A stretch of 57,809 nt of DNA from Chloroflexota bacterium (GTDB lineage Bacteria; Chloroflexota; Anaerolineae; B4-G1; SLSP01), in contig JAKQHY010000096.1 of assembly GCA_029555965.1 (NCBI GenBank), positions 1-57,809 of the forward strand. The letters run 5' to 3'. The notes under the pieces were generated by a model, which saw nothing but the letters and a program-made list of their open reading frames with translations, was not told the origin of the DNA and did no database searches. The position numbers were made by a program, and so were the translations under genes. Below are positions 753-56,614 of the stretch, piece after piece (the stretch's first letter is position 1; the number at the start of each line of letters is the position of its first letter).

Positions 753-812
753 CCATTCGCCATTCGCCATTCGCTATCCGCAATTCGCTATCCGCAATTC
801 GCTATTCGCTAC
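753..812. repeat. Heptamer-periodic ATTCGC repeat array (cattcgc x3, tatccgcaattcgc x2)
   Basis: Lies between the stop of the partial CDS and the OYE gene RBS. Confidence 0.8.
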
Positions 813-828
813 TTTCAAGGGAGACGCT

Positions 829-1866
829 ATGCCCACTCTATTCTCACCCCTCACCTTGCGCGGACTCACCCTCCGCAACCGCATCGTCATGCCGCCGATG
901 TGCATGTACTGCGCCGGGACGGACGGCCTTGCTGCCGACTGGCATCTTTCGCACTACCACGCGCGGGCGCAGGGCGGCGTGGGGCTGATTCTGCTGGAAG
1001 CAACCGCCGTGGAGCCGCGGGGCCGCATCAGCGCGGGCGACCTGGGCCTGTGGGACGACGCGCAAATCGCGTCGCTGGCCCGCGTCGCGGCGCTGGCGCG
1101 GGCGGAAGGCGCGGCCATCGGCGTCCAACTGGCGCACGCCGGGCGCAAAGCCTGGAGCGCGGACAACGGCCACGGCCCGGAGGACCCCGTCGCGCCGAGC
1201 GCCCTGCCCTACGACGCTGACTGGCGCACCCCGCGCGCCCTCACCGAGACGGAGATTGACGCCATCGTAGCCGCGTGGCAGGCCGCCGCCCGCCGCGCCG
1301 CCGCCGCCAACCTCGACGCCATCGAAATCCACGGCGCGCACGGCTACCTGGTCAACGAATTTCTTTCCCCTCTCAGCAACACCCGCGCCGACGCCTACGG
1401 CGGCAGCCCGGAGGCCCGCCGGCGCTTCCTGTTGCGCGTCGTAGACGCCATTCGCGCCGCCTGGCCGGAATCCAAACCGCTGTTCGTGCGCCTCTCGGCG
1501 GTGGACTGGCGCCCCGACGGCGTCACCCTCGACGACACGGTCGCCACGGCGCGCGCCCTGCGCGACCACGGCGTGGACGCGATCCACTGCTCCAGCGGCG
1601 GCCTCGTCTCCGCGCGCCCGCCCGACGTCGGCCCTGGCTACCAGGTCCCCTTCGCCGCCCGCGTGCGCCAGGAGGCGGCCATCCCCACTGTCGCCGTCGG
1701 CCTCATCACCGCGCCGGAATACGCCGACGCGCTCATCCGCACCGGTCAGGCCGACCTCGTCGCGCTGGGCCGCGAGCTGCTGCGTCACCCCCACTGGCCC
1801 CTCGACGCCGCCCGCGCCCTGAAACACGACATCGCGTGGCCGAAGCAATACGAACGGGCGAGATAG
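829..1866 (+). CDS. NADH:flavin oxidoreductase, Old Yellow Enzyme (OYE) family (YqjM/NamA-like)
   Basis: N-terminal LTLRNRIVMPPM, the HGAHGYL motif, EFLSP...RxDxYGGS and the CSSGG C-terminal region are typical of OYE TIM-barrel flavoproteins. An AAGGGAG ribosome-binding site (RBS) lies before the ATG at 829. Confidence 0.9.
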   Translation: MPTLFSPLTLRGLTLRNRIVMPPMCMYCAGTDGLAADWHLSHYHARAQGGVGLILLEATAVEPRGRISAGDLGLWDDAQIASLARVAALARAEGAAIGVQLAHAGRKAWSADNGHGPEDPVAPSALPYDADWRTPRALTETEIDAIVAAWQAAARRAAAANLDAIEIHGAHGYLVNEFLSPLSNTRADAYGGSPEARRRFLLRVVDAIRAAWPESKPLFVRLSAVDWRPDGVTLDDTVATARALRDHGVDAIHCSSGGLVSARPPDVGPGYQVPFAARVRQEAAIPTVAVGLITAPEYADALIRTGQADLVALGRELLRHPHWPLDAARALKHDIAWPKQYERAR

Positions 1867-2048
1867 GAGTTAGGAGTGAGGAGTGAGGAAAGCCAGCATC
1901 GAGAATCGAGAATCATGAATCAAGAATCCAGCATCGAGCATCGAGCATCCAGCATCCAGCATCCAGCTTCCAGCATCCAGCATCCAGCATCCAGCATCCA
2001 GCTTCCAGCATCCAGCATCCAGCATCCAGCATCCAAAATCCAAAATCC
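1867..2048. repeat. ~180-bp array of 7-bp-periodic tandem repeats (gagtgag, aatcgag, catccag x~12, aaaatcc families)
   Basis: Phase is maintained over ~26 units. The array begins right after the OYE stop codon and is translated in-frame as ASSIQHP repeats in the ORF 1876..2799. Confidence 0.85.
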
Positions 2049-2851: not shown

Positions 2852-3488
2852 ATACCGGCATAATCGTCGCCGGATCGCTCGCCACAATCTCCGCCTCCAA
2901 CTGGCCCGCCGAAAGCTCGCGCAGCGCGTTCTGAAAGCCGGGCAGATGTTCCTCGGCAAAACGCGCCGTCAAGGTGACGTCCCCCGCAAAATCTTCTTCT
3001 AGGGTCTCGCCGTGATGCTCCGGGATCAACAGCCGCACCCGCTCAAACAGCGCGTAAGGCGCGGCCAGCATCACCGTGTGCGTGGGGACGCGCTCGGCCA
3101 GCGACAGCACGCGCAACACCGCCCGCACCGCGTCGCCATAAGCGCGCACCAGTCCCCCCGTGCCGAGCTTCGTCCCGCCGAAATAGCGCGTCACCACCAC
3201 CGCCACGTCGCCCAGATCGCTGCCCTTGAGGACGGCCAGCGCGGGCCGGCCCGCCGTGCCGGAAGGCTCGCCGTCATCGCTGCAATGCGCCGTCACGCTC
3301 GCGCCGTGCCCCACCAGGAACGCCGGCACGTTATGCGTCGCGTCGCCAAACTCCGCGCGGATGCGGGCGACAAAGGCTTTCGCTTCGTCCACACTGAACA
3401 CCGGCGCAATCGTCGCAATGAAGCGCGAATTGACGACCACGATCTCCACGCGGGTTTCGCGGGCAGGGATAAGATAACGGTCGCTCAT
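2847..3488 (-). CDS. yigZ: YigZ/IMPACT family protein (UPF0029)
   Basis: Full-length similarity to the YigZ/IMPACT fold (VVNSRF..., GDDGEPSGTAG, VVVTRYFGGTKLGTGGLVRAY). Confidence 0.85.
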   Translation of the reverse strand: MSDRYLIPARETRVEIVVVNSRFIATIAPVFSVDEAKAFVARIRAEFGDATHNVPAFLVGHGASVTAHCSDDGEPSGTAGRPALAVLKGSDLGDVAVVVTRYFGGTKLGTGGLVRAYGDAVRAVLRVLSLAERVPTHTVMLAAPYALFERVRLLIPEHHGETLEEDFAGDVTLTARFAEEHLPGFQNALRELSAGQLEAEIVASDPATIMPVS

Positions 3489-3826
3489 ATCTGAAGCTCA
3501 CTAACTTCTGCGCGCGCCTCCCGCCACCGCTCCGGGCCGGGGAACGACCGCAAGTACCCCATCAAGTCAAACTTCGGGCCGACAACCAGCCGCGCGGTGA
3601 ACGTCGTCTCATCCTGCGTGACCTCGCCCGCCAGCAGCACCTTCTTCTTGCGCGCCTTCTCCGGGATGTCGAAGACGTACCCGGCTCCAACCCGCCGTAG
3701 ATTCACCGGCACGTATGCCTCCTGCAAGAACTTCCGCAACTGCGCCCCCGCCTCCGGGAAATGCGCCGCCGGCAGCGTCAACCGCAACGTCATCTGCCCA
3801 AACACCCCCGGCTCAAACCCTTCCAT
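3485..3826 (-). CDS. Hypothetical small protein downstream of the radical SAM gene. It may be the DUF2344-like partner or fragment of a TIGR03960/TIGR03936 pair.
   Basis: ORF 3485..3880, with a likely start at the internal Met (MEGFEPG...). The upstream part of the ORF is translated from the G-rich tract. The genomic position matches the usual radical SAM / radical-SAM-linked pairing. Confidence 0.4.
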   Translation of the reverse strand: MEGFEPGVFGQMTLRLTLPAAHFPEAGAQLRKFLQEAYVPVNLRRVGAGYVFDIPEKARKKKVLLAGEVTQDETTFTARLVVGPKFDLMGYLRSFPGPERWREARAEVSELQI

Positions 3827-3838
3827 CCATCCCAAAAA

Positions 3839-3922
3839 CCTCACCCCCTCACCCACACTCCCACACCCCCCTACTCCCATACTCCCCCTCCCCCCCTCTC
3901 CCCCTCTCCCCCCCCTCCCACG
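3839..3922. repeat. C/T-rich (G-rich on the minus strand) homopolymeric tract with C-runs up to 8
   Basis: Seen directly in sequence. Encodes the Gly/Glu/Arg-rich tail of the radical SAM protein and separates it from the small downstream ORF. Confidence 0.8.
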
Positions 3923-6044
3923 CCTTCAACGCGAACACCGTCTCGCCATACAGCCCGGCGTAACGGCGGAGGGCGTCTTTGGTGGTGAAGAGGCTTTCTT
4001 GCACGGAGAGCAGGTTATCTTCCCACGCGGGGAACATCTGAAGCAATTGCTGCATGATCCAGGCGTTTAACCATGCCGGCTCGGCCCCGGCCACGTCCGG
4101 CGGCAGCCAGAGGCGCACGTACACCGGCTTGAGTCGCCATTTGGCCGTCATCACGGCTTCCAGGTCGCGCAAATACGTCCCGCCGGGCAGTTTTAACGTG
4201 TGGGTGAGGATCGCCGCGCGTTCCTTCGGCGTCGCGCAAGCGTCGCAGCCCAGGCAGTGGGACGAGCCTCCGGCCTGTCCGACTTCGCCCAAACAATACC
4301 CCTCATCCTCCCCCGCCATCGCCTGCCGGTATTTCTTGTAGAAATAGTCCGGCGCGATCCGCTGCTGCACGAACGCCAGCGGGAAAGCGTAATCCGGCCC
4401 CTTCTCGCCCAGAAAAGCCGCGTCCCAATGGCCGTTCTCCGCCAGCCAGCCGCGCAGCGCATCCCAATAACCGGGCGTGAGCGACAAATCGTAACAATGG
4501 CCCTGCTCCGCCAACGCGAGCACCGGGGCGTGCAGCCAATACCCGCCGAGCGCCAGTACCTGCGACGCCGCATACTCGTCCCACGGCGCGGCCAGCCGGA
4601 ACTCGAACCCGTTAGTCTCGCACGCCGACTTCGCCGGGCCGATGACGGGCCGCCAGTCAGCCTCCTCCAGAAACAGCCGGTCGTAGCGCAGCGGCGTGAA
4701 AGGCATCCGCACCAGCAGGCCAAAGCTGAAGATGACACGCAGGCCCCGGTTAGCGCGCTGCTGCATATCCCGTAGGTCGCGCGCGAAGTCGCGGAATTCG
4801 GCCAGGTCGGCCTCCGTCTCGTGGCCGGTGAGGATGTAGAACAGCTTGATCTCGCGGATTTTCTGCCGCAGCAGCCGCGCCAGCACGCCGTGAATCGCGG
4901 CGTCGGGCAGGCTCTTGTGCAGGAAGGCGCGCATCCGCCGGCTGATGCCCTCGATGCCCAGCGTGAAACTGCGCTTGTCGGCCATCACCTCCGCTTCCAG
5001 CATCCCCGGCGCGGACGCCAGCACGTCCACCCGCTGGCTCTTGAAGCTCACGCGATCAAACCTCCGGTTGAGGGCCAGCAACAGCGGCAAAATCTCCGCC
5101 TGCGTGTTGAAGTTGAAGCTGTACAAATCCACCGCCGCCGCGCCGCCGCGCTTGAGCTGCTGCGCCGCCGCCAGCACGTCCGCCTGGGCGACTTCGCGGT
5201 AGGGCTTGCGGTCGTAGCCCTCGAAGCAAAAGGAGCAGAACGCGGGGCAGCCGAAGTTGAGCTGCAAGCGCGCCGTCCCCGCCTCCTCCCCGTTGAGCAG
5301 CGGATAGACGGTCAGCAGGTCATCGGATTGGGGCGCAGCGCAGACGGCTTTGGACACAGATTCAACGGATTGAACGGATTCAACGGATTGTTGTCCGTTA
5401 CATCCGTGGGCAACCCACAGGCCAGTGGTCTGGGCGGCAGCGGATAACAGGCGCGCGCGTTTCGGCAGGTGCGCGTTTTCGGCCAGCAGGCGCAGCAGCG
5501 TCTCCACCTCGCGTTCCCCCTCCCCGAAGAAGAGCGCGTCGGCCATGCAGTCGCCCGCCGGCGTGAGGATCGCCTGCGTCGCCAGCGCGTTGGAGCCGCC
5601 GAGCAGGATCGGCGGGAAGTCCGCGCCGCGCGCGCTGGCCCACACCGGGATGCCGGAGTGGAGCAGCAAATACGGCAGGTTGATCAATTCGAGCGTGTAG
5701 GCGTTGGAGACCAGCACCACGTCGAAGTCCGCCGCCCCGCGCCAGGATTGCGTCCCCACCCACAGGGGGATGCCGGCGCGCAAGAATGCCTCGCGGTCGC
5801 GCTGTGGCGGGAAGAAGGCCATGTCCACGTAGGCGGCGGGCAGAGCGCGGCGCGCGGCCTGGAACAAGAACAGGTGCGGCGTCGAGCGTTCCACGTCCCG
5901 AAAGGGAGAGAGGCGCACGATCAGCGCGCGGAATGGGGCAGCGTCAAACGGGGGATTGCCAAACGTGGGGTTAGGGCGCGGCGTGTAAAGCGAAGCCTGT
6001 TGTAGGGTAGCCCAATGCTGAGTAAAAAACTCGTGATAATCCAT
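3849..6044 (-). CDS. B12-binding-domain radical SAM protein (TIGR03960-like, uncharacterised family)
   Basis: A CxxxCxxC motif (CPAFCSFC) follows a B12-binding-like N-terminal domain, and the length is ~730 aa. The likely start is the ATG at 6044, with GAAGG 4-7 nt upstream (the ORF's first codon is TTG at 6047). An in-frame heptamer-repeat segment (NGQQSVESVQSVESV) lies at 5357..5410. Confidence 0.8.
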   Translation of the reverse strand: MDYHEFFTQHWATLQQASLYTPRPNPTFGNPPFDAAPFRALIVRLSPFRDVERSTPHLFLFQAARRALPAAYVDMAFFPPQRDREAFLRAGIPLWVGTQSWRGAADFDVVLVSNAYTLELINLPYLLLHSGIPVWASARGADFPPILLGGSNALATQAILTPAGDCMADALFFGEGEREVETLLRLLAENAHLPKRARLLSAAAQTTGLWVAHGCNGQQSVESVQSVESVSKAVCAAPQSDDLLTVYPLLNGEEAGTARLQLNFGCPAFCSFCFEGYDRKPYREVAQADVLAAAQQLKRGGAAAVDLYSFNFNTQAEILPLLLALNRRFDRVSFKSQRVDVLASAPGMLEAEVMADKRSFTLGIEGISRRMRAFLHKSLPDAAIHGVLARLLRQKIREIKLFYILTGHETEADLAEFRDFARDLRDMQQRANRGLRVIFSFGLLVRMPFTPLRYDRLFLEEADWRPVIGPAKSACETNGFEFRLAAPWDEYAASQVLALGGYWLHAPVLALAEQGHCYDLSLTPGYWDALRGWLAENGHWDAAFLGEKGPDYAFPLAFVQQRIAPDYFYKKYRQAMAGEDEGYCLGEVGQAGGSSHCLGCDACATPKERAAILTHTLKLPGGTYLRDLEAVMTAKWRLKPVYVRLWLPPDVAGAEPAWLNAWIMQQLLQMFPAWEDNLLSVQESLFTTKDALRRYAGLYGETVFALKAWEGGERGRGGEGEYGSRGVWECG

Positions 6045-6083
6045 CAAACCTTCGCGCCTTTGCGCCTTTGCGTGAAACTCATT

Positions 6084-6725
6084 TCACGGACTCACCGTGA
6101 GGTAAGGCGCGATTTGCTGGTAGGTGGCCGGGCCGATGCCAGGGACGTTCTGGATGTCCTCCACGCGCGCAAACGGCCCGTTGGCCTCCCGGTAGGCGAC
6201 GATGTCCTGCGCGCGACCGGGGCCGATGCCGGGCAGCGTCTCCAGGGCCGCCGCCGTCGCCGCGTTGAGATCGAGCGGCGCGGGCGTCGCCGCGGCGGAA
6301 GGCGCGGGCGTTTCCGCCGCCTGGCGCGGCACGACGAGCTGCTGATTGTCGTACAGCGGCGCCGCCAGATTAAGCGACTCCAGATCGGCGTCTTCCGCCG
6401 GGCCGCCCGCCGCTGCGAGCGCGTCTTCCACCAGGCTGTCGCCAGGGAGCGTCACCACCTGCGGTTCCAGCACCGCCCCGCTCACGTAGATGGTCACCGG
6501 CTGCGGCGTCACCGTGGGCGCGGGCGTCAGGGGCGCGACGGTGTTAGCAACCCGAATGACCGGCGCAGGCAACGCCAGGGTCGGCTCCTCCAAAGTGCGA
6601 AATCCCCAGTAGCCGATGGCCCCGCCGACGAGCAAGCTCACCAACGCCACCACAATCAGGCGCGGGCGGAAATATTTCGCAGCAGCGGGCGTAAGTTGGA
6701 ACTCGGAAGATTCAGTCCGACTCAT
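6084..6725 (-). CDS. comEA: ComEA family DNA-binding competence protein (SLBB domain + helix-hairpin-helix)
   Basis: N-terminal TM anchor, an SLBB-like segment (VTIYVSGAVLEPQVVTLPGDSLVEDALAAAGG), and a C-terminal HhH (LDLNAATAAALETLPGIGPGRAQDIVAYRE...F). The start is the ATG at 6725, preceded by a CAGGAG RBS. Confidence 0.85.
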   Translation of the reverse strand: MSRTESSEFQLTPAAAKYFRPRLIVVALVSLLVGGAIGYWGFRTLEEPTLALPAPVIRVANTVAPLTPAPTVTPQPVTIYVSGAVLEPQVVTLPGDSLVEDALAAAGGPAEDADLESLNLAAPLYDNQQLVVPRQAAETPAPSAAATPAPLDLNAATAAALETLPGIGPGRAQDIVAYREANGPFARVEDIQNVPGIGPATYQQIAPYLTVSP

Positions 6726-6804
6726 AAAATAACGCTCCTGAAAAAAGGAGAAAGTTTCACGCAAAGGCGCGAAGGCGCAAAGATTTTTAAGATTGGACTA
6801 AATT

Positions 6805-7875
6805 TTACGGCGTATCCGTTAAATCCGTTGAATCCGTTGAGCCTTTTCTCCCCCTCCGCTTGAAAAGCCGCCGGGGCGCCATCTTGCGCATCCGCTCGTA
6901 GAGCGCGCGCAAATCCGGGCCTTTGAGCGTGGCGCCGGCCTGGAAGTAGCGGTGCGCGGCCTGCCCGATGCCCCACGTGCTGATCGCCGCCATCGCCGCC
7001 GAGACAATCCAACCGGGGCCGGGGATGAACTTCGCCAGTTGCCCGGCCAGGTAGCGCGAAAGCAGGCTGCCGGCCATCGTCGTCAGCAGCTCGCGCGCGT
7101 GCGAGACGCTCATCGGTTGGCCGTAGGCGGCGGCGATCCGCAACACCATGCGCGTCTGCGAGGTCAGCAAGAAGGGCACGTCCAGGCCGGGGAACGGCTG
7201 TAGCCCGATCATGGCGTTAAGCCACGCCGTCCGCAGAATAATTTTGTGGACCAACTGCTGGCGGACGCCCGGCAGCGCGTGCGCCATCGCCACGGCGACC
7301 GCCGGCTGCGCGTCCAGGATGGCGGGCAGGAGCTTGTCCACCACGCCGCCGCCCGTCCGCGCTACCACCGGAACCGGGCGGACGCCCAGCAATTTCTCCG
7401 CATTTTCGAGAATCCAGGGCAAATCCTGCTTGACCAGGTCGGTCTTGTTCAGCGCCACCACCACCGGGACTTTCAGCGCCCGCAGCGATTGGTAGAGGTC
7501 GTGATCGCTCTGCCGCACGCCCGCCGCCGCGTCCAACAACAGCAGCACCAGATCGGCGCTCTGGGCCGCCTCCTGCGCGGTGTTGGCGCGATCCACGCCC
7601 CACACTTCCCCAAAGCCGGGCGTATCCACCAGGAGAAACGGCCCCAGCGGATGTTCCACCACACCCTTGGTCGTGCCGGGGACGGCGCTCACGGCGGAGA
7701 GCTTGCGGCTGTGGAGATAGTTGAACAGAGTGGACTTGCCGCTGTTCACCGGCCCCACAATCACGAGCCGGGATTGCAACTCCTGCGCCACTTCCTCTCC
7801 CTGGGCATGCCAGTCCAACGCTTGCAGCGCCTTTTGAATATCCTGTAACTTGCTGGGTAAAAGTAATAGCGACAC
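6805..7875 (-). CDS. GTPase with a small-GTPase G-domain and a DUF697-like membrane-associated C-terminal domain
   Basis: P-loop GPVNSGKST, DTPG, and NKTD motifs. GTG start with an AAGGAG RBS. The last ~10 codons (GSTDSTDLTDTP) are encoded by a ccgttga heptamer array. Confidence 0.75.
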   Translation of the reverse strand: MSLLLLPSKLQDIQKALQALDWHAQGEEVAQELQSRLVIVGPVNSGKSTLFNYLHSRKLSAVSAVPGTTKGVVEHPLGPFLLVDTPGFGEVWGVDRANTAQEAAQSADLVLLLLDAAAGVRQSDHDLYQSLRALKVPVVVALNKTDLVKQDLPWILENAEKLLGVRPVPVVARTGGGVVDKLLPAILDAQPAVAVAMAHALPGVRQQLVHKIILRTAWLNAMIGLQPFPGLDVPFLLTSQTRMVLRIAAAYGQPMSVSHARELLTTMAGSLLSRYLAGQLAKFIPGPGWIVSAAMAAISTWGIGQAAHRYFQAGATLKGPDLRALYERMRKMAPRRLFKRRGRKGSTDSTDLTDTP

Positions 7876-7935
7876 AGTACTCCTTGGAAAACAGACAAAA
7901 CGTGTTAACGTTTAAACGTTGGAACGATGTTCTCA

Positions 7936-10053
7936 TCAGTCACAGTCAGGAAGCGGCAGCGTGAAGGCAAATGTCGAGCCGCCCCCGGAGGTTTCGACCA
8001 CCCAGATACGCTCGCCGTGCGCCTCCAGGGCCATCCGGCAGAAAGCCAGCCCCAATCCGCTGCCGCGTTCCTGATGCGAGCCAGTCACAAATTTCTGAAA
8101 CAGTCGCTTGCGCACATCCTCTGGGATGCCCGGCCCGGTGTCACTCACCGAGACCTGGAGCTTGCATGCCGGAGTAGTGGGGATGACCACACGCACCCCC
8201 ACCGTTCCCCCTGCCGGCGTGAACTTAAGCGCATTGCCCACCAAATTCTGTAAGACTCGTTCCACCAGGTCCCTATCGGCCCGGACCTGGGGCAAGTCTG
8301 GCGAAACTTCTTTGCCCAATGTCAACTGCCGCTCGGCAGCGATCGGAGCCTGCATCGCCAGCACATCCTCCAACAAAACGGTGAAGTCGAAGAGGGTGAG
8401 ACTCAACGGCATTTTGCCACTTTCCAGGCGGTTAATATCGAGGATCGCCCCAACCAGACGCAGCATCCGCTGGACGCTGTCCTGCGCCGCTTCCAAAATC
8501 CGATGGTGCGATTGTGTGAACACACTGTCATAATCCGTCGAAAGCAGCCTTAACCCGGCGTAAATGCCGGAAAGCGGATTGCGCAGGTCATGCACCATTG
8601 TGTGGGTCAAATCCTCGCGGAAGCGCTCCAACAAACGCGCTTCCGTCACATCTTGCAGCACAAACAAACGCCCAACGGCGCGTTCGGTCTCCAACACCGG
8701 CAGATTTAGCCAGTGGATGATCCGGGCGCCTACCTGCATTTCGCCCTCGCCTGACCGAGCATCGCCGGCTTGCACTCGGCGTACTTCCGAGAGGATTACA
8801 TCTACCGCCTGCGGCGAATGTTCATACAGACGGCTCAACGCATCCCAAAACCACTGATCACCCCAGGAAACCGGATCGCCGGGCAACTTGAGCAGGTCCA
8901 GGGCCGGGCGGTTGATGACCAGCACGTGCATATCCAGGCCCAATAAGATAATCCCATCGCGACTGGACTGGATCAACGCGCGCAATCGGCTGCGTTCTTC
9001 GGTCACGGCCTGGAAGAGTTGCGCATTTTGGATCGTTATCGCCACTTGCGCCGCGATTGCCAGGAGCAAATCCAAATCGGCCTGGACAAAATCCGGCTGC
9101 TCAGCACGATTAACGGCCATCAACACTCCAAACACCTGGCTGCGCGCAAACAACGGCGCCGCCGCTATCGAACCGGTGTAAAGCCCCTTGTACCAATACA
9201 ACCCATGTTCGGTAGCGCGCGCCTGGGCTTCGGTTTTTTGCAAAAGCGCCGGCAACCCCTCGCGCAGCACACGGCCGGTCAAACCCTCCACCAACTCGTC
9301 ATAGGACAGCGGCACCACTTGCCCGCCGCCTGTCCCGCCGACGATGAAATGCCGCACCCGGCGGTTGTGCGTATCCAGGGAGACCAACAAAACCTGGTCG
9401 GCGTGAATGGCGGCGGCGACTTGATTCGTCACCTCCAACAACACCGAATCCGAAAAATACGGGGCATTCAACGTGCGGCTGGTGTGATAGAGGGTTTCTG
9501 TCTTATGTAGGGAGGCCCAGAAACGGTTCTCCAGCCGCTGCCGCTCTGTGACCTCACTCTGGAGCGCCGTGTAAAGGCGGGCATTGCGCAGGGTGAGAAG
9601 GAAGGTTTCGCCCAAAACTTCCGCTACCCGCTGCACCGCAGCGTCGCAAGCGTCCGGCGTGTCAAACGCGATGAGAAGCAGCAATTGCGCCCGCTCCCCC
9701 AGCTTCAACGGCGCCAAAAGGGCGCTGGCAATCTCAGCAGAATTCGGCCAGAAAACCGTCTCCGGCGATACCGTGGGCAGCAACTTCAGATTTCCGGCGC
9801 GCCAGACCTCTCCCGGCAGACTCCCGCTCACCGGCGTTTGCACGCCCAACGGCGGCGCCAGCGGGCCGGCGGCCGCCACCACGCGCAACTGCGTTCCCCC
9901 CTCACTGGGCGCAAAGAGGACTACGCCAGGCCAGCCGGTCAGCGCCGCCACGCCGGCTACCGCCTCCCCCAAGGCCTGATCCGGAGCGAGCGATTCATGC
10001 AGGGTCTTGAAGACTGCGCCCACCACGCTCAGCGGATCAAGTGGCGGTGTCAA
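7936..10053 (-). CDS. Sensor histidine kinase with tandem GAF/PAS sensory domains (orphan; no adjacent response regulator)
   Basis: H-box HDLRNPLSGI, the N/G1/G2 boxes of the HATPase_c ATPase domain (NLVGNALKFT..., DTGPGI, GSGLGL), and GAF-like segments upstream. TTG start with GGAGGAAG 4 nt upstream (RBS), overlapping the ftsK stop (TTGA). Confidence 0.85.
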   Translation of the reverse strand: MTPPLDPLSVVGAVFKTLHESLAPDQALGEAVAGVAALTGWPGVVLFAPSEGGTQLRVVAAAGPLAPPLGVQTPVSGSLPGEVWRAGNLKLLPTVSPETVFWPNSAEIASALLAPLKLGERAQLLLLIAFDTPDACDAAVQRVAEVLGETFLLTLRNARLYTALQSEVTERQRLENRFWASLHKTETLYHTSRTLNAPYFSDSVLLEVTNQVAAAIHADQVLLVSLDTHNRRVRHFIVGGTGGGQVVPLSYDELVEGLTGRVLREGLPALLQKTEAQARATEHGLYWYKGLYTGSIAAAPLFARSQVFGVLMAVNRAEQPDFVQADLDLLLAIAAQVAITIQNAQLFQAVTEERSRLRALIQSSRDGIILLGLDMHVLVINRPALDLLKLPGDPVSWGDQWFWDALSRLYEHSPQAVDVILSEVRRVQAGDARSGEGEMQVGARIIHWLNLPVLETERAVGRLFVLQDVTEARLLERFREDLTHTMVHDLRNPLSGIYAGLRLLSTDYDSVFTQSHHRILEAAQDSVQRMLRLVGAILDINRLESGKMPLSLTLFDFTVLLEDVLAMQAPIAAERQLTLGKEVSPDLPQVRADRDLVERVLQNLVGNALKFTPAGGTVGVRVVIPTTPACKLQVSVSDTGPGIPEDVRKRLFQKFVTGSHQERGSGLGLAFCRMALEAHGERIWVVETSGGGSTFAFTLPLPDCD

Positions 10054-12359: not shown

Positions 12360-13290
12360 GAATCACGCCTGCATCCACCAGGCCGAGCGCGATACGATGT
12401 TCATCCGGCATAATCTCCAAGATGCGGACCGGGACTTTCTGTCCGACCTGATAGATGCGCGGCGGCAGAAACGCGCTTTCCAGCTCGGAAATGTGCAGCA
12501 ATCCCTCCAGGCCATCCCGCAATTCCAGGAAAACCCCAAACCGCTCCACGCTGACGACTTCACCTAGCAGCACGTCGCCCGGCTTAAGGTGGCTTTCTAC
12601 CGAAGACCAGGGATTGGAGTTGAGGCGCTTGATACTCAGTCCTACGCGCTGATGTTCGGGATCTACGTTGAGAATCTTCACGCGCACGTTTTGCCCCGGT
12701 TCCAGAAAATCGCGGGGGTGCCGGACACGGCCCCAGGAAATTTCGGAGATATGGACCATCCCTTCCAGCGGGCCAATGTCCACAAATGCGCCGAACGGCC
12801 GCACGCTGGTCACGGTGCCCTCGCACACCCGGCCCGCGCTCAACCAGCCGGGCCATTCCGGTGCGACCAACTCACATTCCGTCACCTGCCGCTCAGAAAG
12901 CAAGATGCGATTGCGCTGGGGTTCCACTTCAATGATACACAGGCGCAACTGCCGCCCCACGTACCGAGAAAAGCACACCTCACGCGCATCCAGGTCCGCC
13001 GGAAAAGGGTAGTCTATCAAATGGGAAGCCGGCACGAAACACTCAATGCCTTTCCAATGGGCCATCACCCCACCCCGGTTGAAGTCATCAATGACCAGTT
13101 CCAGGATGGTGTGGGCCTGTTGCAGTGCGCGCGCTTCGTCCCAGATCGCATCCGCGATGGGCGAGGCTTCGGTCCACTCCCAGACAATCTGCGTCTGCCC
13201 GGTACTGACAGGCCCTTGGCCCAAAAGAGCTTGCCAGTAATCTTCATTGGGAGAAACATACGGGGGAATATAACGATCCATCAAAGTCAC
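12346..13290 (-). CDS. S1 RNA-binding domain protein (3 S1 domains)
   Basis: Repeated S1/OB signatures (GTVTSVRPFGAFVDI, GEVVSVERFGVFLEL, HISEL). It overlaps the ftsK start by 14 bp. Confidence 0.7.
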   Translation of the reverse strand: MTLMDRYIPPYVSPNEDYWQALLGQGPVSTGQTQIVWEWTEASPIADAIWDEARALQQAHTILELVIDDFNRGGVMAHWKGIECFVPASHLIDYPFPADLDAREVCFSRYVGRQLRLCIIEVEPQRNRILLSERQVTECELVAPEWPGWLSAGRVCEGTVTSVRPFGAFVDIGPLEGMVHISEISWGRVRHPRDFLEPGQNVRVKILNVDPEHQRVGLSIKRLNSNPWSSVESHLKPGDVLLGEVVSVERFGVFLELRDGLEGLLHISELESAFLPPRIYQVGQKVPVRILEIMPDEHRIALGLVDAGVIHAAA

Positions 13291-43456: not shown

Positions 43457-43493
43457 AAGTGCTTTGTGAGTATATACAGATTAAGGAGATAGG

Positions 43494-44537: not shown

Positions 44538-44572
44538 TTTTAAGAGACTATCCGAGCACAGGAAAATTTGAT

Positions 44573-47519: not shown

Positions 47520-47670
47520 CGCGGCGCATTATCGCATGGGTGAAGCCGGGAGTCAACTTGTCATTCATAGCGCTCTTGGGTATAGTACGTAAAACATAAA
47601 ACGTGAAGCTTTCACAGTAAAATCATCACGTTTCACGTGTCACGTTTCAGAAATCCCTTTCAGGAAAACT

Positions 47671-49128
47671 ATGATGCGCTTACGCAAATTTGGCTGGCTG
47701 CTCTTGCTCATCGCGGCGGGCGTCGCCTACTGGCTTCTCCCCATTCGCGGGCAGGTGATCATCACGCCGGGGGAAGTGGCGGACTGGCCCTGGCCGCGCC
47801 TCCGTCTGGAGCCGACCACGCCGCAGCCCGGCGACCGGGTGGAGGTGATGCTCACCGACGTGACGCCGTGGACTTTCGTGACGCTAACGGTGGACGGCGT
47901 CCCGGCACAGGCGCAGGGACAGGCCGTCCGCAGCGGCGTTGTCTGGACGTGGCGCTGGACATATACCGCGCCCGCCGCGCCCGCCGAGGTGATCTTCTAT
48001 CACGATTGTCACACCGGCTGCGTGGAGCGAGGCCGCTTCCCGCTGGGCGATCCGACGCCATCCCCCCGCCCGGCAACCACGCCGACGAAGCTTGGCCTAG
48101 TGATGCCCAGTCTCACCCGCGATTGGCACGGGCGCAGCGGCTGGGCCGTCGAAATCACCTACGCCCGCCGCGCCGAGGAGCCGTATTGGGGCGTGGACGA
48201 TCTGGCGGCGCGGATTACGGCGCATCACGCCCAGGGATTGCGCGTCCTCGTGCGCGTGGATTATGACCAGGAACAAAGCCTTCCGCCGACGGGCGACTAC
48301 GTCGCCCTGACCGAGTACCTGGAATACCTGCGCCGCCTGTCGCGCGACGCGCGCCTGCGCGAAGTCTACGGCTACGTGCTGGGCGCCGATTACAACACGG
48401 CGGAGGCAAACGGGTTGGCGGCAGGAAGGCCGGTCACGCCGGAGTGGTACGCCCGCCTCTGCAACGGCTATGGCGAGGACGTCAGCCACAGCGACAACGC
48501 CGTGCAAATCGTGCGGGCCGAAAATCCGCGTGTCCGCGTCATCGTCGGCCCGTTGCAGCCGTGGAGCGCCGATCAGGATGGTGCGCTGCCCTACACCATC
48601 AACCAGCCCTGGCTCAACGCCATGAACACCCTCGTCGCGCGGCTGGACGAAACCGCGCGCGCCAAAGCCGCTGCCGGCATCCCGCTGTCCGCGCCGGATG
48701 GCTTCGACGTGCAGGCGCCGGGCGCGCCGGATGCGCCGGAGATGGCGGGCACGCTCCGGGCCGACGAGCCGTCCGCCGAACTGCGCCGCGCGGTGTGGGG
48801 CGGCGCGCGGGCGGGCTTCGGCGTCTACCGGGACTGGCTGGACATCATCAACGCCTATCCGAGCACGCGCGGGCTGCCGGTCTACATCATCTCCACCAAC
48901 ACCTACGACCGCGCGGCGGGTATTCCGCCGGCGCAAAATTACCCCAAAGGCTGGCTCACCACCGCGCTGGACGTGGTCAACACCGAGCCGCAGATCGCGG
49001 CGCTGTGTTGGTTCCTCGACAATTTCCCGCACGGCGACCAGTGGGATTGGTTCAGCCTGACGCAGCGCCCCGGCCGGCTGGTGGACGCGGCGGAAGAGTT
49101 AGAGGCGTTGTTGCGGGGAGAAAATTAA
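47671..49128 (+). CDS. Secreted/membrane-anchored hypothetical protein with a TIM-barrel glycoside-hydrolase-like domain
   Basis: N-terminal signal/anchor and a Pro-rich linker. The domain shows alternating beta/alpha elements with conserved acidic residues. AGGAAA RBS. Confidence 0.45.
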   Translation: MMRLRKFGWLLLLIAAGVAYWLLPIRGQVIITPGEVADWPWPRLRLEPTTPQPGDRVEVMLTDVTPWTFVTLTVDGVPAQAQGQAVRSGVVWTWRWTYTAPAAPAEVIFYHDCHTGCVERGRFPLGDPTPSPRPATTPTKLGLVMPSLTRDWHGRSGWAVEITYARRAEEPYWGVDDLAARITAHHAQGLRVLVRVDYDQEQSLPPTGDYVALTEYLEYLRRLSRDARLREVYGYVLGADYNTAEANGLAAGRPVTPEWYARLCNGYGEDVSHSDNAVQIVRAENPRVRVIVGPLQPWSADQDGALPYTINQPWLNAMNTLVARLDETARAKAAAGIPLSAPDGFDVQAPGAPDAPEMAGTLRADEPSAELRRAVWGGARAGFGVYRDWLDIINAYPSTRGLPVYIISTNTYDRAAGIPPAQNYPKGWLTTALDVVNTEPQIAALCWFLDNFPHGDQWDWFSLTQRPGRLVDAAEELEALLRGEN

Positions 49129-49179
49129 CGCAAAGACGCAAAGACGCAGAGTAAGGAATTATTCTTTGCGTCTTTGCGT
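49129..49179. terminator. Inverted-repeat hairpin (CGCAAAGACGCAAAGACGCAGAG ... CTTTGCGTCTTTGCG) between convergent genes
   Basis: Built from gcaaaga heptamer units. Followed by TTAATTTTC on the minus strand, so it is a plausible terminator for the activase gene. Confidence 0.5.
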
Positions 49180-49207
49180 TGAAAAACGAGCTAGAAATGC
49201 AAAAGTA

Positions 49208-51042: not shown

Positions 51043-51251
51043 AAGCAAAGGCGCAAAACGTAGATTCATCACAATGTTACTCGGCAAGATTGGCGTAATC
51101 CACGAGCATCTTTCAGGGACACGGGTTGGACGGGCTGAACGGCTCACACAGATAATTTTTAGGATTTAATCCGTGTTCATCCGTCTGATCCGTTCAATCC
51201 GTGTGCAAAATTCAGATTGTGGCTCAGCCGCCTTCTGGCCCACGCTTTGCG

Positions 51252-52807: not shown

Positions 52808-53560
52808 ATGGACATCATCACAGAACTGTTACAAGCCATTGCGCCCAACGCAGCGCGGGCGAAGCCGGTAGATGTGCGCATTGGCGCGCATTGGAGCATC
52901 ACAACCTTTGAAGTGGATAAACGGCTGCGGGCGGGGTTGTCTTCGACGTTGGGCGGCGGAGATGACCATCATCATGGCGGCGGATGGCCGGTGCGCGACG
53001 CCGGGCGGCTGCTGGATGCGGATGCGGCGACACTGGCCGCGCTGGCCCGCTCAGACAGCACGCAGGAGGCAAGCGTGGGCTTCGCCGCGATCAACGCGCT
53101 GCTGGATGTGGACGAGGCTGCCTGCGAAGAGCTTAACGCCGCCGACCTCCTCGCCGAGCAGGGCGCCGGGCGCAAAGTGGCGGTGGTTGGGCACTTTCCC
53201 TTCATCCCACACCTGCGCGAGATCGCCGAGACGCTGTGGGTACTGGAATTGCATCCGCGCGCGGGCGATCTGCCGGCCGACTGCGCCGCCGAGGTGCTGC
53301 CGCAGGCCGATGTGGTCGCGCTCACCGGTACGTCGCTGCTCAACCACACATTTGACGCCCTGATCGCGCTGTGCCGCCCGGACGCTTACGTGGTGATGCT
53401 CGGTGGGACGACGCCGCTTTCGCCGGTACTCTTCGACGCCGGCGTGAACGTCATTGCAGGAACACTCGTCGTAGATCCTGGTTTGGCCGTTCTCGCCGTG
53501 AGCCAGGGCGCCACGTTCAAACAGATTCCGGGGAAGCGGTTGGTGGTGCTCAGAAGTTAG
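52808..53560 (+). CDS. DUF364/DUF4213 domain protein (Rossmann-like, putative metal-chelation family)
   Basis: Family-level architecture similarity. AAAGGA RBS. Confidence 0.5.
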   Translation: MDIITELLQAIAPNAARAKPVDVRIGAHWSITTFEVDKRLRAGLSSTLGGGDDHHHGGGWPVRDAGRLLDADAATLAALARSDSTQEASVGFAAINALLDVDEAACEELNAADLLAEQGAGRKVAVVGHFPFIPHLREIAETLWVLELHPRAGDLPADCAAEVLPQADVVALTGTSLLNHTFDALIALCRPDAYVVMLGGTTPLSPVLFDAGVNVIAGTLVVDPGLAVLAVSQGATFKQIPGKRLVVLRS

Positions 53561-53640
53561 GAGTGAGGAGTGAGGAGTGAGGAGCAAGACAACTCGCAAC
53601 TCCTAACTCCTAACTCCCAACTCGCAACTCCTCACTCGTG
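53556..53640. terminator. Inverted heptamer-repeat hairpin (gagtgag x3 ... ctcctaa/ctcgcaa arms) between convergent genes
   Basis: Starts at the TAG stop of the DUF364 gene and ends at the pcm stop. The arms are imperfect reverse complements. Confidence 0.5.
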
Positions 53641-54243
53641 AATAAACGGCACAAACGCGACGCCGCCCATGTCTACACGCTCGATGCGGTCGCCGTGTTT
53701 GATGAATTTCCACAGGGTTTGATAGCCATGCGGCGGGCCGACGGGGATGACGAGCCGGCCGCCTTCGGCCAGTTGCGCCCACAGGGGTTCGGGGACTTCG
53801 GCAGGGGCCGCTGTGACGAGGATGCCGTCGTAAGGCGCGAACTCCGACCAGCCGACGTAGCCATCATCGAGTTTGCAGTGGACAGTGTAACCAAGCGCGT
53901 CCAGTCGCGCCCGCGCCGCCTCATAGAGCGCGGGGATGCGCTCCACCGTGTATACATCCAGCCCCATGGCGGCGAGAAGGGCGGCCTGATAGCCGGAGCC
54001 GGTGCCCAGCTCCAGCACGCGCTCGCCAGATTTGAGCGACAGAGCTTCCGTCATCAGCGCCACGATGTAGGGCTGCGAGATCGTCTGCCCATACCCGATG
54101 GGTAGCGGGTAGTCGCCATAAGCATCGCAGCGATGCGTCTCCGGCACGAAGGCATCGCGAGGAACCCGGGTGAGCGCGTCCAATACAAGCGTGTCGCGCA
54201 CGCCCCGTCGGCGGATGAGTGCGACCATTTCCTCATGCGACAT
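53632..54243 (-). CDS. pcm: Protein-L-isoaspartate O-methyltransferase
   Basis: SAM motif VLELGTGSGYQAALLA and the PIMT core. ATG at 54243 with an AAGAGGAG RBS. Confidence 0.85.
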   Translation of the reverse strand: MSHEEMVALIRRRGVRDTLVLDALTRVPRDAFVPETHRCDAYGDYPLPIGYGQTISQPYIVALMTEALSLKSGERVLELGTGSGYQAALLAAMGLDVYTVERIPALYEAARARLDALGYTVHCKLDDGYVGWSEFAPYDGILVTAAPAEVPEPLWAQLAEGGRLVIPVGPPHGYQTLWKFIKHGDRIERVDMGGVAFVPFIHE

Positions 54244-54397
54244 AGCGGCTCCTCTTATCGCCCGTTGTAGCAAAGTGATGAAACGTGAGGGGTGAGGATT
54301 TCAGGCAGGGATACTCTCATTATAACTCAGGTTTACGCCCTTATGACACATTTGAACCAGGATTTATGCAAATCCACTCCACAGTTACCCCTGGATG

Positions 54398-56362
54398 CTA
54401 GGGCTTACATAGAGTCTCTTCGCATAAGCGCAAATGCCCCACCGCATCGGTGAAGTCCCACCCTTGACTGAGAAGTGTCACCCCGATTTGATCGTAGCCT
54501 GCGCTCACTGCCGCCTCGGGGACGGCGACGCAATAGCGATTCAGGTATTCCGGCTGCAAGGGCGCGGGCGGAATTGACTGTTGGGCGATAAGGTCACTTC
54601 CCTCGTAGTAGAAGAGAGCAACGGCATCGGTATGATACAGGCTCACCTCAACGTAAGGAGCGTGCTGTGCGCCTGGCAGCGCAATCAACAGGCCGCCGGC
54701 GTTGAGGGTGAAGACTTCGTCCCACTGAACGGCGCCCTCTTTTATCGCGCTCATCTCTTGCAATGGCAGCCGCGAGGCATAATAGCTGTAAAACGCTTTG
54801 TCAATCAGGCGCTCGTACTGCCCGGTGTTCATCTTCCAAATCGCCTCCCAACGCCCCGGCGCAAACAGGCTCCCGCGCGTGATCAGCGTCAGTTGGTCGT
54901 AAAACCGCGCCAGGTTCGGGTCGGCGATGAGGGCTTCGCCCCGTTCCAGGGATGCCAGGTAGCCTTCCGGGAAAACCCGGCGGAAGTGCCCGATGCGCCA
55001 GGGCTGTTTGACGACGGGCAGCCGCGCCAAAAGCGGATCGGCCAGGGCGTTGTCATCCACAATGTGAACGCTAGGGCCGGCGTAGAAGCCGATAAAGCCG
55101 ATGGCGCCGCGCGAAAAGACGCGGGGGCCGTCGGTGCGGCGGTTGCGCCCTTCAACGGCCCAGGGGTGATTGGGCATCTGCACGTCACGCGCCAGGGTGA
55201 GCAGGCTGGTGGCCTGGTAATACACGCCGCGCTCGTCGCCGACGCCCTGATTGCCCGCGAAAGCGTCGCCGGAGAGACCGTAAGCGCCGTCGCTGATCAG
55301 GGTGGGGAAGGGGGACAGCAACCCCACCAGGAAAATGAGGGCGAAGGGCAGGTATTTAACCGAGAGGTTTTCCATAAACTCGCTTTGCCCCAGCAAGATG
55401 ACGGCGAAGAACAGCGGGGCGGTGAGAAAGCGCCCGCTCATAAAATCGCCGCCGACCCACACCACGTAGGCAACGTACAGGAGGATGCCCAGCGCCGCGA
55501 TCCAATCGCGCGTGACGCGCCGCTTAACCGTCGCCAGCAGCGCAAACGCTATGCCGGTCAGGGTCAGCGGATCCCAGTTGAGCGAGTTGAGCAGGTAGAT
55601 GAGGCCCTGCTTGATCAACTCATCGTGGGGGATTCCCGTGTTGAGCTTGGCGTAGTAGGTGTTGGGCAAAGCGAAGCCGTAGTAGACGATGGAAAAGGCT
55701 TCCCACAGCACGAGGGGCAAAAACCCTGCGCCCAGGGCCAGCCAGCCGCGCCAACTCTTGGTTTTCAACCCGGCATAGATCAGCGCGGGTGCAAAAATCA
55801 GCAACAGGTCCAGGCGAGTCAACATGCCCAATGCCGCGAAAAGCGCCAGCTTGCTCAAAGTTTTCGGGTCAAAGGTTTCCGCGCGAAGGTAGACCCACAG
55901 GAACAGCGCGATGAGGAGGTGCGTCAACGGGTTTTCCAGTCCCGACGTGGAATAATCCACGAAAGCCTTCGACAGCAGCAACAACGAGCCGCCCAGCAGC
56001 AGCGTCCAGGGCGAGCGCGCCGTTTTTGCCGCCCACAGCAGGGCGGCGCACGAGACGCCGATGGAGACGATGTGCAGCGTGAAAAAGGCCTCGCGGGTGA
56101 AGAAATAGAAAAATGCCAGGACGAACATCCACAATGGATGCGTGTACGCCTGCACCCGCTCGTTGACGTTCCAGGTCAGCCCGTAGCCGTGGACGAAATT
56201 GTCCACCGTGCGGAGCGTGATGTAAGCGTCATCGCACAACCAGGCGGTTCTGACCAGCAGCGCGACCCACACCACCAGCAACAACCACGCGACCAGGGTT
56301 TGAGAACGTCTGGCCGACTTCTGCCCCTCGGCACAGTTTGTCATGGGTTCACCTTCAAACAT
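54398..56362 (-). CDS. Large GT-C-type membrane glycosyltransferase-like protein (arabinofuranosyl/mannosyl-transferase-like)
   Basis: ~11 TM helices N-terminally with a conserved DDAYI-type loop motif (LCDDAYITLR), and a soluble C-terminal domain. Alternative start at 56344. Confidence 0.55.
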   Translation of the reverse strand: MFEGEPMTNCAEGQKSARRSQTLVAWLLLVVWVALLVRTAWLCDDAYITLRTVDNFVHGYGLTWNVNERVQAYTHPLWMFVLAFFYFFTREAFFTLHIVSIGVSCAALLWAAKTARSPWTLLLGGSLLLLSKAFVDYSTSGLENPLTHLLIALFLWVYLRAETFDPKTLSKLALFAALGMLTRLDLLLIFAPALIYAGLKTKSWRGWLALGAGFLPLVLWEAFSIVYYGFALPNTYYAKLNTGIPHDELIKQGLIYLLNSLNWDPLTLTGIAFALLATVKRRVTRDWIAALGILLYVAYVVWVGGDFMSGRFLTAPLFFAVILLGQSEFMENLSVKYLPFALIFLVGLLSPFPTLISDGAYGLSGDAFAGNQGVGDERGVYYQATSLLTLARDVQMPNHPWAVEGRNRRTDGPRVFSRGAIGFIGFYAGPSVHIVDDNALADPLLARLPVVKQPWRIGHFRRVFPEGYLASLERGEALIADPNLARFYDQLTLITRGSLFAPGRWEAIWKMNTGQYERLIDKAFYSYYASRLPLQEMSAIKEGAVQWDEVFTLNAGGLLIALPGAQHAPYVEVSLYHTDAVALFYYEGSDLIAQQSIPPAPLQPEYLNRYCVAVPEAAVSAGYDQIGVTLLSQGWDFTDAVGHLRLCEETLCKP

Positions 56363-56614
56363 AGTCTGATAGTCGTTAGTCAGATAGTCTGATAGCCATA
56401 GGACTTACGCAAGGATGGCGCTTTTGCACCGCAAAGCACGCTGAGGCCGCTGAGACCCTATAAAAATCTCTGCGTGCTCTGCGTCCTCTGCGGTAAATTC
56501 TCGCTCGTTTGCGTGAGTCTTTCTCTCCCACATGTAAATTTTATTACGGGCAGTTCAGGGGTCAAGAACGGGGGGCGTTTTATGTTCTGCCCCGTGCGAT
56601 AGTCCCGGTTGCTC

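Follow-up and report, generated by a model that had tools for sequence, protein, structure and literature searches.

What are the short tandem repeats scattered along a stretch of 57,809 nucleotides from a Chloroflexota bacterium, and what has put them there? The stretch, called the window below, is positions 1 to 57,809 of contig JAKQHY010000096.1 (assembly GCA_029555965.1) and represents 57.8 kb of one metagenome-assembled genome (MAG) of the Anaerolineae. A reading of its letters alone (the sequence-only reading) had described a genome-wide family of heptanucleotide arrays at gene boundaries, likened them to the short tandemly repeated repetitive elements (STRRs) of cyanobacteria, and proposed that they act as terminators or insulators. 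We compared the window with related loci, examined as fragments and labelled L001-L098, and with viral contigs from IMG/VR (L099-L135). The combined results demonstrate that the family is real, enriched in one clade, dispersed, unstable by whole units and filtered by selection. The explanation that we consider probable, without holding it to be certain, is an STRR- and repetitive extragenic palindrome (REP)-like family of dispersed, slippage-prone repeat modules that would be largely selfish or neutral, and whose hairpin forms are probably 3′-end structures.

Short-unit arrays are enriched in the window and its closest relatives

Tandem Repeats Finder (TRF) listed short-unit arrays at every locus named in the sequence-only reading, and the sequences agree with those it had given. 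Compared to 100 block-wise dinucleotide shuffles of the window, arrays with a TRF score of at least 40 were far in excess at period 7 (5 observed; shuffle mean 0.01), period 8 (3; 0.03), period 9 (8; 0.07) and period 14 (5; 0.39), which composition does not account for. The window holds about 20 arrays, roughly nine of them with 7-bp units and the rest with units of 8 or 9 bp, and relatives also have 10-bp units. The description of the family as heptameric therefore stood at 748-811, 1865-2048, 2783-2851, 37166-37245, 47587-47649 and 53555-53638, but not at 6049-6072, 6760-6782, 49128-49179 and 56361-56395 (8-bp units) or at 56468-56492 (9 bp); all the loci read earlier as ccgttga/aatccgt (5357, 6811, 46350, 46838 and 51166) consist of the nonamer AACGGATTN.

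The top protein matches of the window and all 80 loci recovered around orthologues of its radical SAM gene belong to MAGs of Anaerolineae, Thermoflexia or Thermoflexales. Across these loci, arrays with a period not divisible by 3 (non-3n arrays) reach a density per 10 kb of 2.25 for the window, 2.36 for its nine closest relatives (protein identity 69-72%), 1.21 for the ten loci that come next and 0.24-0.46 for sixty more distant ones; distant Anaerolineae thus have 5-10 times fewer arrays than the closest relatives of the window. Other contigs of the same metagenome contain up to about 2 arrays per kb, with the same units as the window.

The same units and modules recur at unrelated loci

Several units of the window, namely AACGGATTN, ACGTTTYA, CGCAAAGR, CCGTCTA, GGAGTGA, ATTCGCY and CGCAGAGNN, recur at unrelated loci and in other species. 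Exact double units (14-16 specified bases) were found in 1-8 other sources for 8 of the 10 unit patterns tested, compared to a chance expectation that we estimate at about 0.01 per pattern in 1.24 Mb. GTAGACG, the unit of the array at 37166, is also present in the radical SAM linker of L005 and L010 and between genes in L081 and L091, and units like ATAGTCTG (56361-56395) are found in L005 and L008. Single-linkage clustering on the 7-mers that units have in common merged too many of them owing to GC-rich coding repeats and was used qualitatively only.

Whole modules recur as well. Between the hairpins at 2783 and 47587, identity is about 80%, loop included (an estimate from the alignment), and they represent a family with a conserved loop of about 25 nt (GCTTTYACARTRA..CATYAC). 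A search with a pattern based on this loop recovered four further copies in metagenomes and one in L081, and the resulting seven copies have unrelated flanks and 2-5 units per arm. The seven aligned copies show variable arm lengths and fuzzy ends, with no duplication in the flanks and no common terminal motif. A module of about 125 nt (56396-56522) has copies at unrelated places in L081 and L002, and the alignment from these three genomes supports a consensus fold with 6 compensated base pairs. Another of about 80 bp (6729-6807) matches a non-syntenic piece of L081 (12696-12765), and a module related to the 53555-53638 hairpin is present in L094. Together, these results show a limited vocabulary of units, in some families with a conserved loop, that recurs at unrelated loci, in other species and, as described below, in phage DNA, and they support the earlier suggestion of a repeat-spreading process.

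Arrays turn over faster than the DNA around them

L081, which is 83-88% identical to the window and syntenic with it over 43.5-50.1 kb, allowed three junctions to be compared. At the 47.6-kb junction the flanks are about 95% identical (estimated from the alignment), while L081 has TCAAACG units and a different loop in place of the TGAAACG units of the window. At the convergent junction at 49.1 kb, L081 has a conventional, non-periodic GC-rich hairpin in place of the array hairpin of ACGCAAAG units, and at 44.6 kb an AT-rich small ORF of the window has nested array hairpins as its counterpart in L081. This ORF, which the gene calls of NCBI for L096 give as 97 aa, belongs to a segment (44538-44828; GC 0.38) placed between the membrane-protein gene described below and a URO-D gene. 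The radical SAM and IMPACT genes overlap or lie no more than about 30 bp apart in the window and in most of 26 other loci, and arrays have been gained between them in L004, L007, L008 and L015. These comparisons show that, at orthologous junctions, arrays turn over much faster than their flanks.

L001 was uninformative as a source of empty sites, being too similar to the window across the array-rich part. Its similarity to the window is a mosaic over 3867-15984, exceeding 99% at roughly 5250-8050 (estimated from the alignment) and falling to about 79% at 11.7-16 kb.

Arrays occupy unconstrained sequence

The gene model for the window was built from codon usage; Pfam domains and the public gene calls available for this DNA agree with it. 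Intergenic gaps of 30 bp or more (n = 33) make up 9.1% of the window, and 12 of the 13 non-3n arrays are intergenic (binomial P = 4e-12). In contrast, a period of 9 characterizes 6/6 arrays inside open reading frames (ORFs) compared to 1/14 intergenic arrays (Fisher P = 1.8e-4). ORFs enclose the nonamer arrays at 5357, 46350 and 46838-46968, and a further ORF has the array at 6811 as its 3′ end. The earlier claim that the repeats sit at gene boundaries thus applies to the non-3n arrays, which extend as far as start and stop codons alike, or into them, and not to the 9-bp arrays within genes. Its claim that several heptamers place stops in all three frames holds, as read from the sequence, for the AAAACGT, TAGACGG and GAGTGAG units but not for CCATTCG, CCAGCAT or CGCAAAGG, CCAGCAT being open in all six frames.

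Arrays are present in 13 of the 33 gaps, comprising 6/6 gaps in 0-8 kb, 0/12 in 13-36 kb and 7/15 in 37-57 kb. The GC content at third codon positions is 0.8-0.9 for genes in the array-rich ends of the window compared to 0.6-0.75 in the array-poor middle. This contrast and the mosaic similarity to L001 could possibly come from populations that recombine, from a chimeric contig or from codon usage linked to expression.

At the left end, a one-way array (748-811; CCATTCG/CTATTCG/CAATTCG/CTATCCG, 8.7 copies by TRF and sequence, with a 14-bp super-period) extends from the stop codon of ORF 2-748 to a point 17 bp short of an Old Yellow Enzyme (OYE)-type flavin oxidoreductase gene (829-1866); its copy number is unchanged in L086, L097 and L098. 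Within the TAG stop of the latter gene starts a heptamer array of AGGAGTG x3.6 (1865-1889), whose unit is also that of the left arm of the hairpin at 53555. AGGAGTG and GGAGTGA, at 1865-1889 and 53555-53638, look like repeated Shine-Dalgarno sequences and the inverted AACTCCT like an anti-Shine-Dalgarno, a likeness that may be coincidence. A long one-way array follows at 1893-2048 (CCAGCAT x20.4 at 1893-2035, then ATCCAAA x2.6), immediately upstream of a membrane-protein gene (2050-2799). This gene and its convergent neighbour both end (2799/2847) within the hairpin at 2783-2851, in which TAAAACG units are followed by a loop and ACGTTT(C/T) units.

The gene comEA is flanked by two inverted arrays of CGCAAAGG, each of about 28 bp and about 680 bp apart: one at 6049-6077 (CGCAAAGG x3 on the minus strand), which takes up the 36 bp that separate comEA from the start of the radical SAM gene, and one at 6757-6785 (CGCAAAGG x2.9), which lies upstream of comEA and is part of the 80-bp module. 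In L081 a distance of only about 75 bp separates this pair of arms, which there make up a hairpin, so that comEA may sit in a former hairpin loop, or the arms may have recombined. Within comEA, a coding 30-bp tandem repeat, CGCGGCGACGCCCGCGCCGCTCGATCTCAA, occurs once in the window (about 6294) and three times in L001 (9694-9753). A weak array of AAACGTTT x2.9 (7898-7920; TRF score 32) lies between same-strand genes and is kept in L001, and an array of GTAGACG x11 with a short inverted copy, CTACTGTCTACC, lies between two minus-strand genes (37166-37270).

Towards the right end, a heptamer hairpin of the conserved-loop family (47587-47649) lies between divergent genes and ends 21 bp before an ATG (gene 47671-49128, which encodes a 485-aa protein for which an exact look-up, as queried, gave no record). 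Hairpins between convergent genes follow at 49127-49180 (a perfect 18-bp stem of ACGCAAAG units that starts at a stop codon), at 51117-51206 (degenerate nonamers, ACGGNTTNN / ATCCGTNNN) and at 53555-53638 (AGTGAGG x4.3 / AACTCCT x6, overlapping both stop codons). An array of ATAGTCTG x4.5 (56361-56395) runs into the predicted start codon of gene 54398-56362, and beside it lies the 125-nt hairpin module (56396-56522), whose right arm is CTCTGCGTN x2.8 (56468-56492) and whose left arm is a degenerate inverted copy.

Inverted array pairs fold as strong hairpins

The arrays take two forms. About half are one-way arrays without predicted structure, such as those at 748-811 (z +1.2), 1893-2035 (z -0.8 for the whole array to 2048), 37166-37245 and 56361-56395, which have no structure beyond that of shuffled sequences. 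The others are inverted pairs that fold as strong hairpins, with dG from -23 to -47 kcal/mol, z from -4 to -8 and, at intergenic sites, arms of 17-29 nt. Values were -23.1 kcal/mol (z -4.9) for 2783-2851, -38.6 (z -7.2) for 46351-46417, -46.9 (z -6.5) for the region 46838-46971, -30.1 (z -8.3) for 49127-49180, -38.1 (z -4.2) for 51117-51206 and -36.9 (z -4.0) for 53555-53638; the pair at 5357-5410 forms a weak hairpin (z -3.4) and the module at 56396-56522 reaches a dG of -55. In the nonamer hairpins, mismatches fall at the variable ninth base.

The foremost alternative, proposed in the sequence-only reading, is that the arrays are dedicated transcription terminators or insulators at gene ends, the inverted pairs being bidirectional terminators. 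That reading had correctly placed inverted pairs between convergent genes: periodic hairpins lie at four of the six convergent junctions (2783-2851, 49127-49180, 51117-51206 and 53555-53638) and a conventional one at a fifth (24346-24383). Such a role would also agree with the strength of the hairpins, with the GC-rich conventional hairpin that L081 has at the orthologous site of 49127-49180 and with the presence of arrays between genes in compact phage genomes. However, it does not explain the unstructured one-way half of the arrays, nor the arrays at divergent junctions and directly upstream of start codons, nor those gained between the closely spaced radical SAM and IMPACT genes, nor the very stable hairpins within conserved ORFs. 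The convergent junctions are not significantly enriched in arrays (4/6 compared to 9/27 other gaps; P = 0.18). Relative to the genome, the stems of the arrays have a high AT content; they contain no T-runs, no U-tract follows any of them, and a combined terminator and promoter scan showed no enrichment, with 25 consensus terminators in the window compared to 23.7 in shuffles. The array stems thus do not fit intrinsic (Rho-independent) terminators, in which a GC-rich stem-loop with a U-tract behind it closes a transcription unit. Loading of Rho at C-rich one-way arrays (rut sites) was considered too, and in the window the three one-way arrays of greatest length have a C-rich sense strand, but this idea failed on 24 one-way arrays from 40 sources, of which 12 were C-rich and 9 G-rich. 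We therefore regard a dedicated terminator or insulator function of the family as unlikely. A narrower role is plausible from this analysis: the strong hairpins at 5/6 convergent junctions, the array hairpin that the window has where L081 has a conventional one and the arrays in compact phage genomes suggest that array hairpins may serve as 3′-end structures.

Conventional, non-periodic GC-rich hairpins lie at gene ends at 24346-24383 (17-bp stem) and 38313-38348 (16-bp stem), indicating that this genome also uses ordinary terminator-like hairpins. Rfam 15, run in gathering and E-value modes, gave a single match above threshold in the window, a tRNA-Val (anticodon TAC; 43036-43110, minus strand) that is the sole Rfam or ARAGORN match; matches at the arrays were sub-threshold generic or chance hairpins. 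CRISPR (clustered regularly interspaced short palindromic repeat) arrays have repeats of 25-40 bp with unique spacers of similar length. A CRISPR array was ruled out here, as the units are 7-9 bp and contiguous; the corresponding Rfam match was a sub-threshold chance match at an ordinary hairpin.

Coding copies are in frame and arrays change by whole units

Arrays with 9-bp units lie in frame in loops, linkers or termini of three proteins. In the radical SAM ORF (3849-6047, minus strand), the array at 5357-5410 (AATCCGTTN x3.4 and a short inverted copy) encodes QSVESVQSVESV, a 10-residue insertion between two domains; this insertion, QSVESVQSVES, is missing from all 9 aligned homologues and present in L001. 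The 896-aa membrane protein (44829-47519, minus strand; a single protein in NCBI, P0121) has two loops that hold hairpins with both arms translated. The first, at 46351-46417 (AACGGATTN x3 / AATCCGTTN x3), encodes NGFNGLSG..KSVESVKSV and is among the strongest hairpins of the window; it lies in the middle of a conserved gene. The second, a degenerate nonamer hairpin at 46838-46906, encodes ..NGIDSD..IRFNSFNPL and is found, besides the window, only in the 79% and 65% identical homologues. The adjoining hairpin of GCAGATTNA units (46907-46971) is unique to the lineage of the window and missing from L081 and P0122; its edges carry what could be a TTCAGA direct repeat, but this is too ambiguous for use as a target-site duplication. 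The last codons of the GTPase ORF (6805-7875) are a AACGGATTN x3 array (6811-6841, minus strand) encoding ..STDSTDLTD.., and the NCBI record has the same gene end.

The insertions in the radical SAM and membrane proteins are missing from more distant homologues, and the radical SAM linker holds different arrays, heptamers included, in L004, L005, L010 and L012. In several relatives, the radical SAM C-terminus (..LWVVG) is encoded by a heptamer array of GTTATGG/GTTGTGG (L004 12500-12545, P0001, P0007 and P0013), so that arrays remodel protein termini in other species too. These results show that arrays occupy unconstrained sequence and that, inside protein loops, linkers and termini, only frame-neutral forms occur.

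Compared to near-identical assemblies (99.6-99.9% to the window), nearly all arrays were unchanged, and they recur in L001, L086 and L095-L098 with the exception of two whole-unit differences. L097 has exactly five CCAGCAT units (35 bp) fewer than the window at 1893-2035. The 8-bp repeat at 3839-3919, which is G-rich on the coding (minus) strand and lies in a variable linker of the radical SAM gene, has one unit fewer in the window than in L097 and L098, although identity between these assemblies is otherwise 99.6-99.8%. As a result, the gene is split in the window into ORFs 3849-6047 (732 aa) and 3485-3856 (123 aa), while the extra unit restores the frame in L097 and L098 and an intact 855-aa gene is called in L097. 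At a greater distance, the L081 orthologue of the coding hairpin at 46351-46417 is shorter by one whole 9-bp unit.

Such differences are what would be expected if the arrays were purely local simple-sequence repeats formed by slippage, without any spreading, some of them acting as phase-variation (contingency) switches. The making and breaking of the radical SAM frame by one 8-bp unit would suit a switch, though an assembly error is possible there, and heptamers are over-represented in many bacteria, possibly for reasons related to the polymerase (PMC4692102). However, slippage does not carry non-repetitive loops and module flanks to unrelated loci and different genomes, where we find them conserved, nor does it readily explain that AACGGATTN occurs at five window loci and also in several further species. 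The genes that carry arrays are housekeeping genes according to a Pfam scan of the window proteins, and not the surface or restriction genes typical of contingency loci. Slippage as the whole explanation is for these reasons improbable.

Phage and viral contigs carry the same units

Searches of IMG/VR with triple-unit patterns found 14 stretches for AACGGATTN and 23 for ACGTTTYAC. The contigs with ACGTTTYAC mostly have a GC content of 0.57-0.64, are dense in arrays and contain hairpin pairs of window units; some encode a Mu-type portal, terminases or portals. The AACGGATTN nonamer occurs in viral contigs with GC contents of 0.28-0.63, in some of them as a coding repeat; the low-GC contigs include giant-virus MAGs in which the nonamer is partly a coding repeat. 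In L104, L105, L107 and L112, the distance from a stop codon to the next ATG is taken up exactly by a AACGGATTN array.

This last position raises the possibility that the units are binding sites for a sequence-specific RNA- or DNA-binding protein, such as an OB-fold protein with a 7-nt footprint or a translation-initiation factor. A similar position and idea have been described for TAACTGA repeats (PMC4679880), and binding could account for the conservation of units across species with about 70% protein identity and across phage contigs of such different composition. More than ten unrelated units nevertheless coexist in 58 kb, their orientation relative to genes is inconsistent and they are swapped freely at orthologous sites. 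No candidate protein emerged, and no strand asymmetry of folding energy or G-U pairs pointed to a code at the RNA level, both strands folding about equally with few G-U pairs. We judge binding by such a protein to be very doubtful. Methylation at GANTC was considered for the GATTC/GAATC units and dropped on inspection only, as many units lack the site.

A more far-reaching proposal, which we put forward as a speculation with a modest chance of being right, is that this clade of Anaerolineae and its phages share an active, sequence-selective process that seeds a small vocabulary of 7-10-bp units, and hairpin modules made of them, into any unconstrained DNA, protein loops among it, replaces conventional terminator hairpins and uses units such as AACGGATTN across unrelated hosts and phages.

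Discussion

The Anaerolineae clade studied here carries abundant tandem-repeat modules of 7-10 bp that are STRR-like in form, and in behaviour are like REPs, the bacterial interspersed mosaic elements (BIMEs) built from them and Rickettsia palindromic elements (RPEs). Under the explanation that we favour, modules would spread by a copy-and-paste or recombination process, and the arrays would then grow and shrink by replication slippage. Complementarity of the arms may be maintained by intrastrand templating (quasi-palindrome correction) or, alternatively, by selection acting on the hairpin. The majority of copies would be selfish or neutral; those hairpin copies that lie at 3′ ends were probably co-opted as transcript-end structures, for termination or for protection from 3′ exonucleases, as for REPs and as suggested for STRRs. 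In coding arrays, a change in copy number could switch the reading frame.

Several points weigh against this explanation. No mobilising enzyme, target-site duplication or defined element end was found in the window and the aligned copies. Since few units of 7 bp are possible, coincidence could account for part of their sharing between array-rich genomes, and the copy number across the genome is an extrapolation from 57.8 kb and fragments of relatives. The differences in unit number could be assembly errors and not true polymorphism; the independent contigs L001 and L086 both end inside the 3839-3919 repeat. Finally, compact phage genomes hold arrays at high density, which speaks for usefulness, and against neutrality, of at least some copies. 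That the arrays as such are artefacts of a metagenome-assembled contig has next to no chance of being true: two contigs do end in one repeat and two arrays differ in unit number, but the remaining arrays are identical in up to five other assemblies of different sources, most arrays are shorter than a sequencing read, and orthologous and paralogous copies occur in many other MAGs and metagenomes.

STRRs were first described in 1990, and the host of the arrays belongs to a filamentous bacterial group, as do the heterocyst-forming cyanobacteria that carry STRRs. In PMC2670836, STRRs are described as usually 7-bp tandem repeats, capable of forming hairpins, intergenic, found in filamentous cyanobacteria and of unknown function, with roles in transcript stability or translational coupling suggested. 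The title of Vioque 1997, as cited in PMC2858038, reports an STRR also inserted inside the gene for RNase P RNA. The likeness noted in the sequence-only reading is apt: part of the arrays have 7-bp units, and the arrays occupy many dispersed and mainly intergenic loci and can form hairpins by our folding. They differ in that the host is a high-GC member of the Chloroflexota and not a cyanobacterium, and that 7-bp units are no commoner than those of 8, 9 and 10 bp. The units of STRR1-3 are CCCCAGT/CCCCAAT, TTGGTCA and CAACAGT; none of them was found in tandem in the window. Only a distant Anaerolineae MAG (L062, 2363-2397) has five copies of ATTGGTC, a rotation of TTGGTCA, the unit of cyanobacterial STRR2. 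We saw in-frame coding insertions and conserved-loop modules, neither of which has to our knowledge been described for STRRs.

The earlier view that nothing of this kind is expected outside cyanobacteria is contradicted by the literature. Heptamer arrays are over-represented in high-GC Xanthomonas (GGGAATC) and in Nostoc, with inverted pairs and variation between relatives, and heptamers are over-represented among the repeat units of many bacteria (PMC4692102). Arrays of TAACTGA are common to Beggiatoaceae, cyanobacteria and Bacteroidetes, where they lie just upstream of start codons and have no known mechanism (PMC4679880). The present arrays resemble those of Xanthomonas and Beggiatoaceae in being intergenic, far above expectation and variable in length and sequence between close relatives. 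In contrast to those genomes, which have one dominant unit, the window has more than ten coexisting units, most of them without G-quadruplex potential. No TAACTGA, GGGAATC or GGGGATT units were found in the window; in view of these missing units, the arrays are of the STRR or long-unit repeat kind and do not belong to the STRR sequence family itself. In the collection of papers searched, no description of such repeats turned up for Chloroflexota, Anaerolineae or Thermoflexus.

REPs and BIMEs, known from enterobacteria and pseudomonads, are short, dispersed, imperfect extragenic palindromes of about 20-40 nt, often at 3′ ends or between convergent genes, that form mosaics and are thought to stabilise the upstream mRNA. 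REPs have a conserved 5′ tetranucleotide and a dedicated REP-associated tyrosine (RAYT; Y1) transposase, and their stems are not made of tandem units. The present hairpins are likewise imperfect, repeated intergenic palindromes with arms of 17-29 nt, but their stems consist of tandem units, and no RAYT gene was found among the window proteins scanned against Pfam, which cover 57.8 kb of the genome. RPEs are elements of 100-150 bp, without tandem periodicity, that are inserted in frame into genes and encode tolerated loop peptides. The in-frame palindromic insertions in the radical SAM protein, the 896-aa membrane protein and the GTPase terminus resemble RPEs in behaviour only, as sequence and host are not related and the modules of the window are tandemly periodic. 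Miniature inverted-repeat transposable elements (MITEs) such as Correia and enterobacterial repetitive intergenic consensus (ERIC) elements are also small, non-autonomous, dispersed and equipped with inverted arms, but the array modules have no fixed length, defined terminal inverted repeats or recognisable target-site duplication. A MITE-like element of about 190 bp, not related to the short-unit arrays, is present in the window in opposite orientations at 32459-32653 and 43269-43465 and also in L090 (2030-2219) and L091 (11567-11767). Its copies are 85-95% identical, with terminal inverted repeats (C)TAAGAACCTATCCGAAAATT, and it folds as one long hairpin (-105 kcal/mol; z -9.9).

The arrays have practical consequences for the study of Anaerolineae, as they break metagenome assemblies (two contigs end in one array), create apparent frameshifts and put low-complexity peptides into the annotated proteins of MAGs. 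For the biology of these repeats, a second, unrelated filamentous lineage with an equally rich repertoire provides an independent system in which to study the origin of STRR-type arrays, and the Anaerolineae lineage offers conserved-loop modules, whole-unit polymorphism, in-frame coding copies and phage copies as handles. Should a seeding process indeed be shared by the clade and its phages, this would point to a mechanism or binding factor, shared horizontally, as the basis of STRR-type repeats at large.

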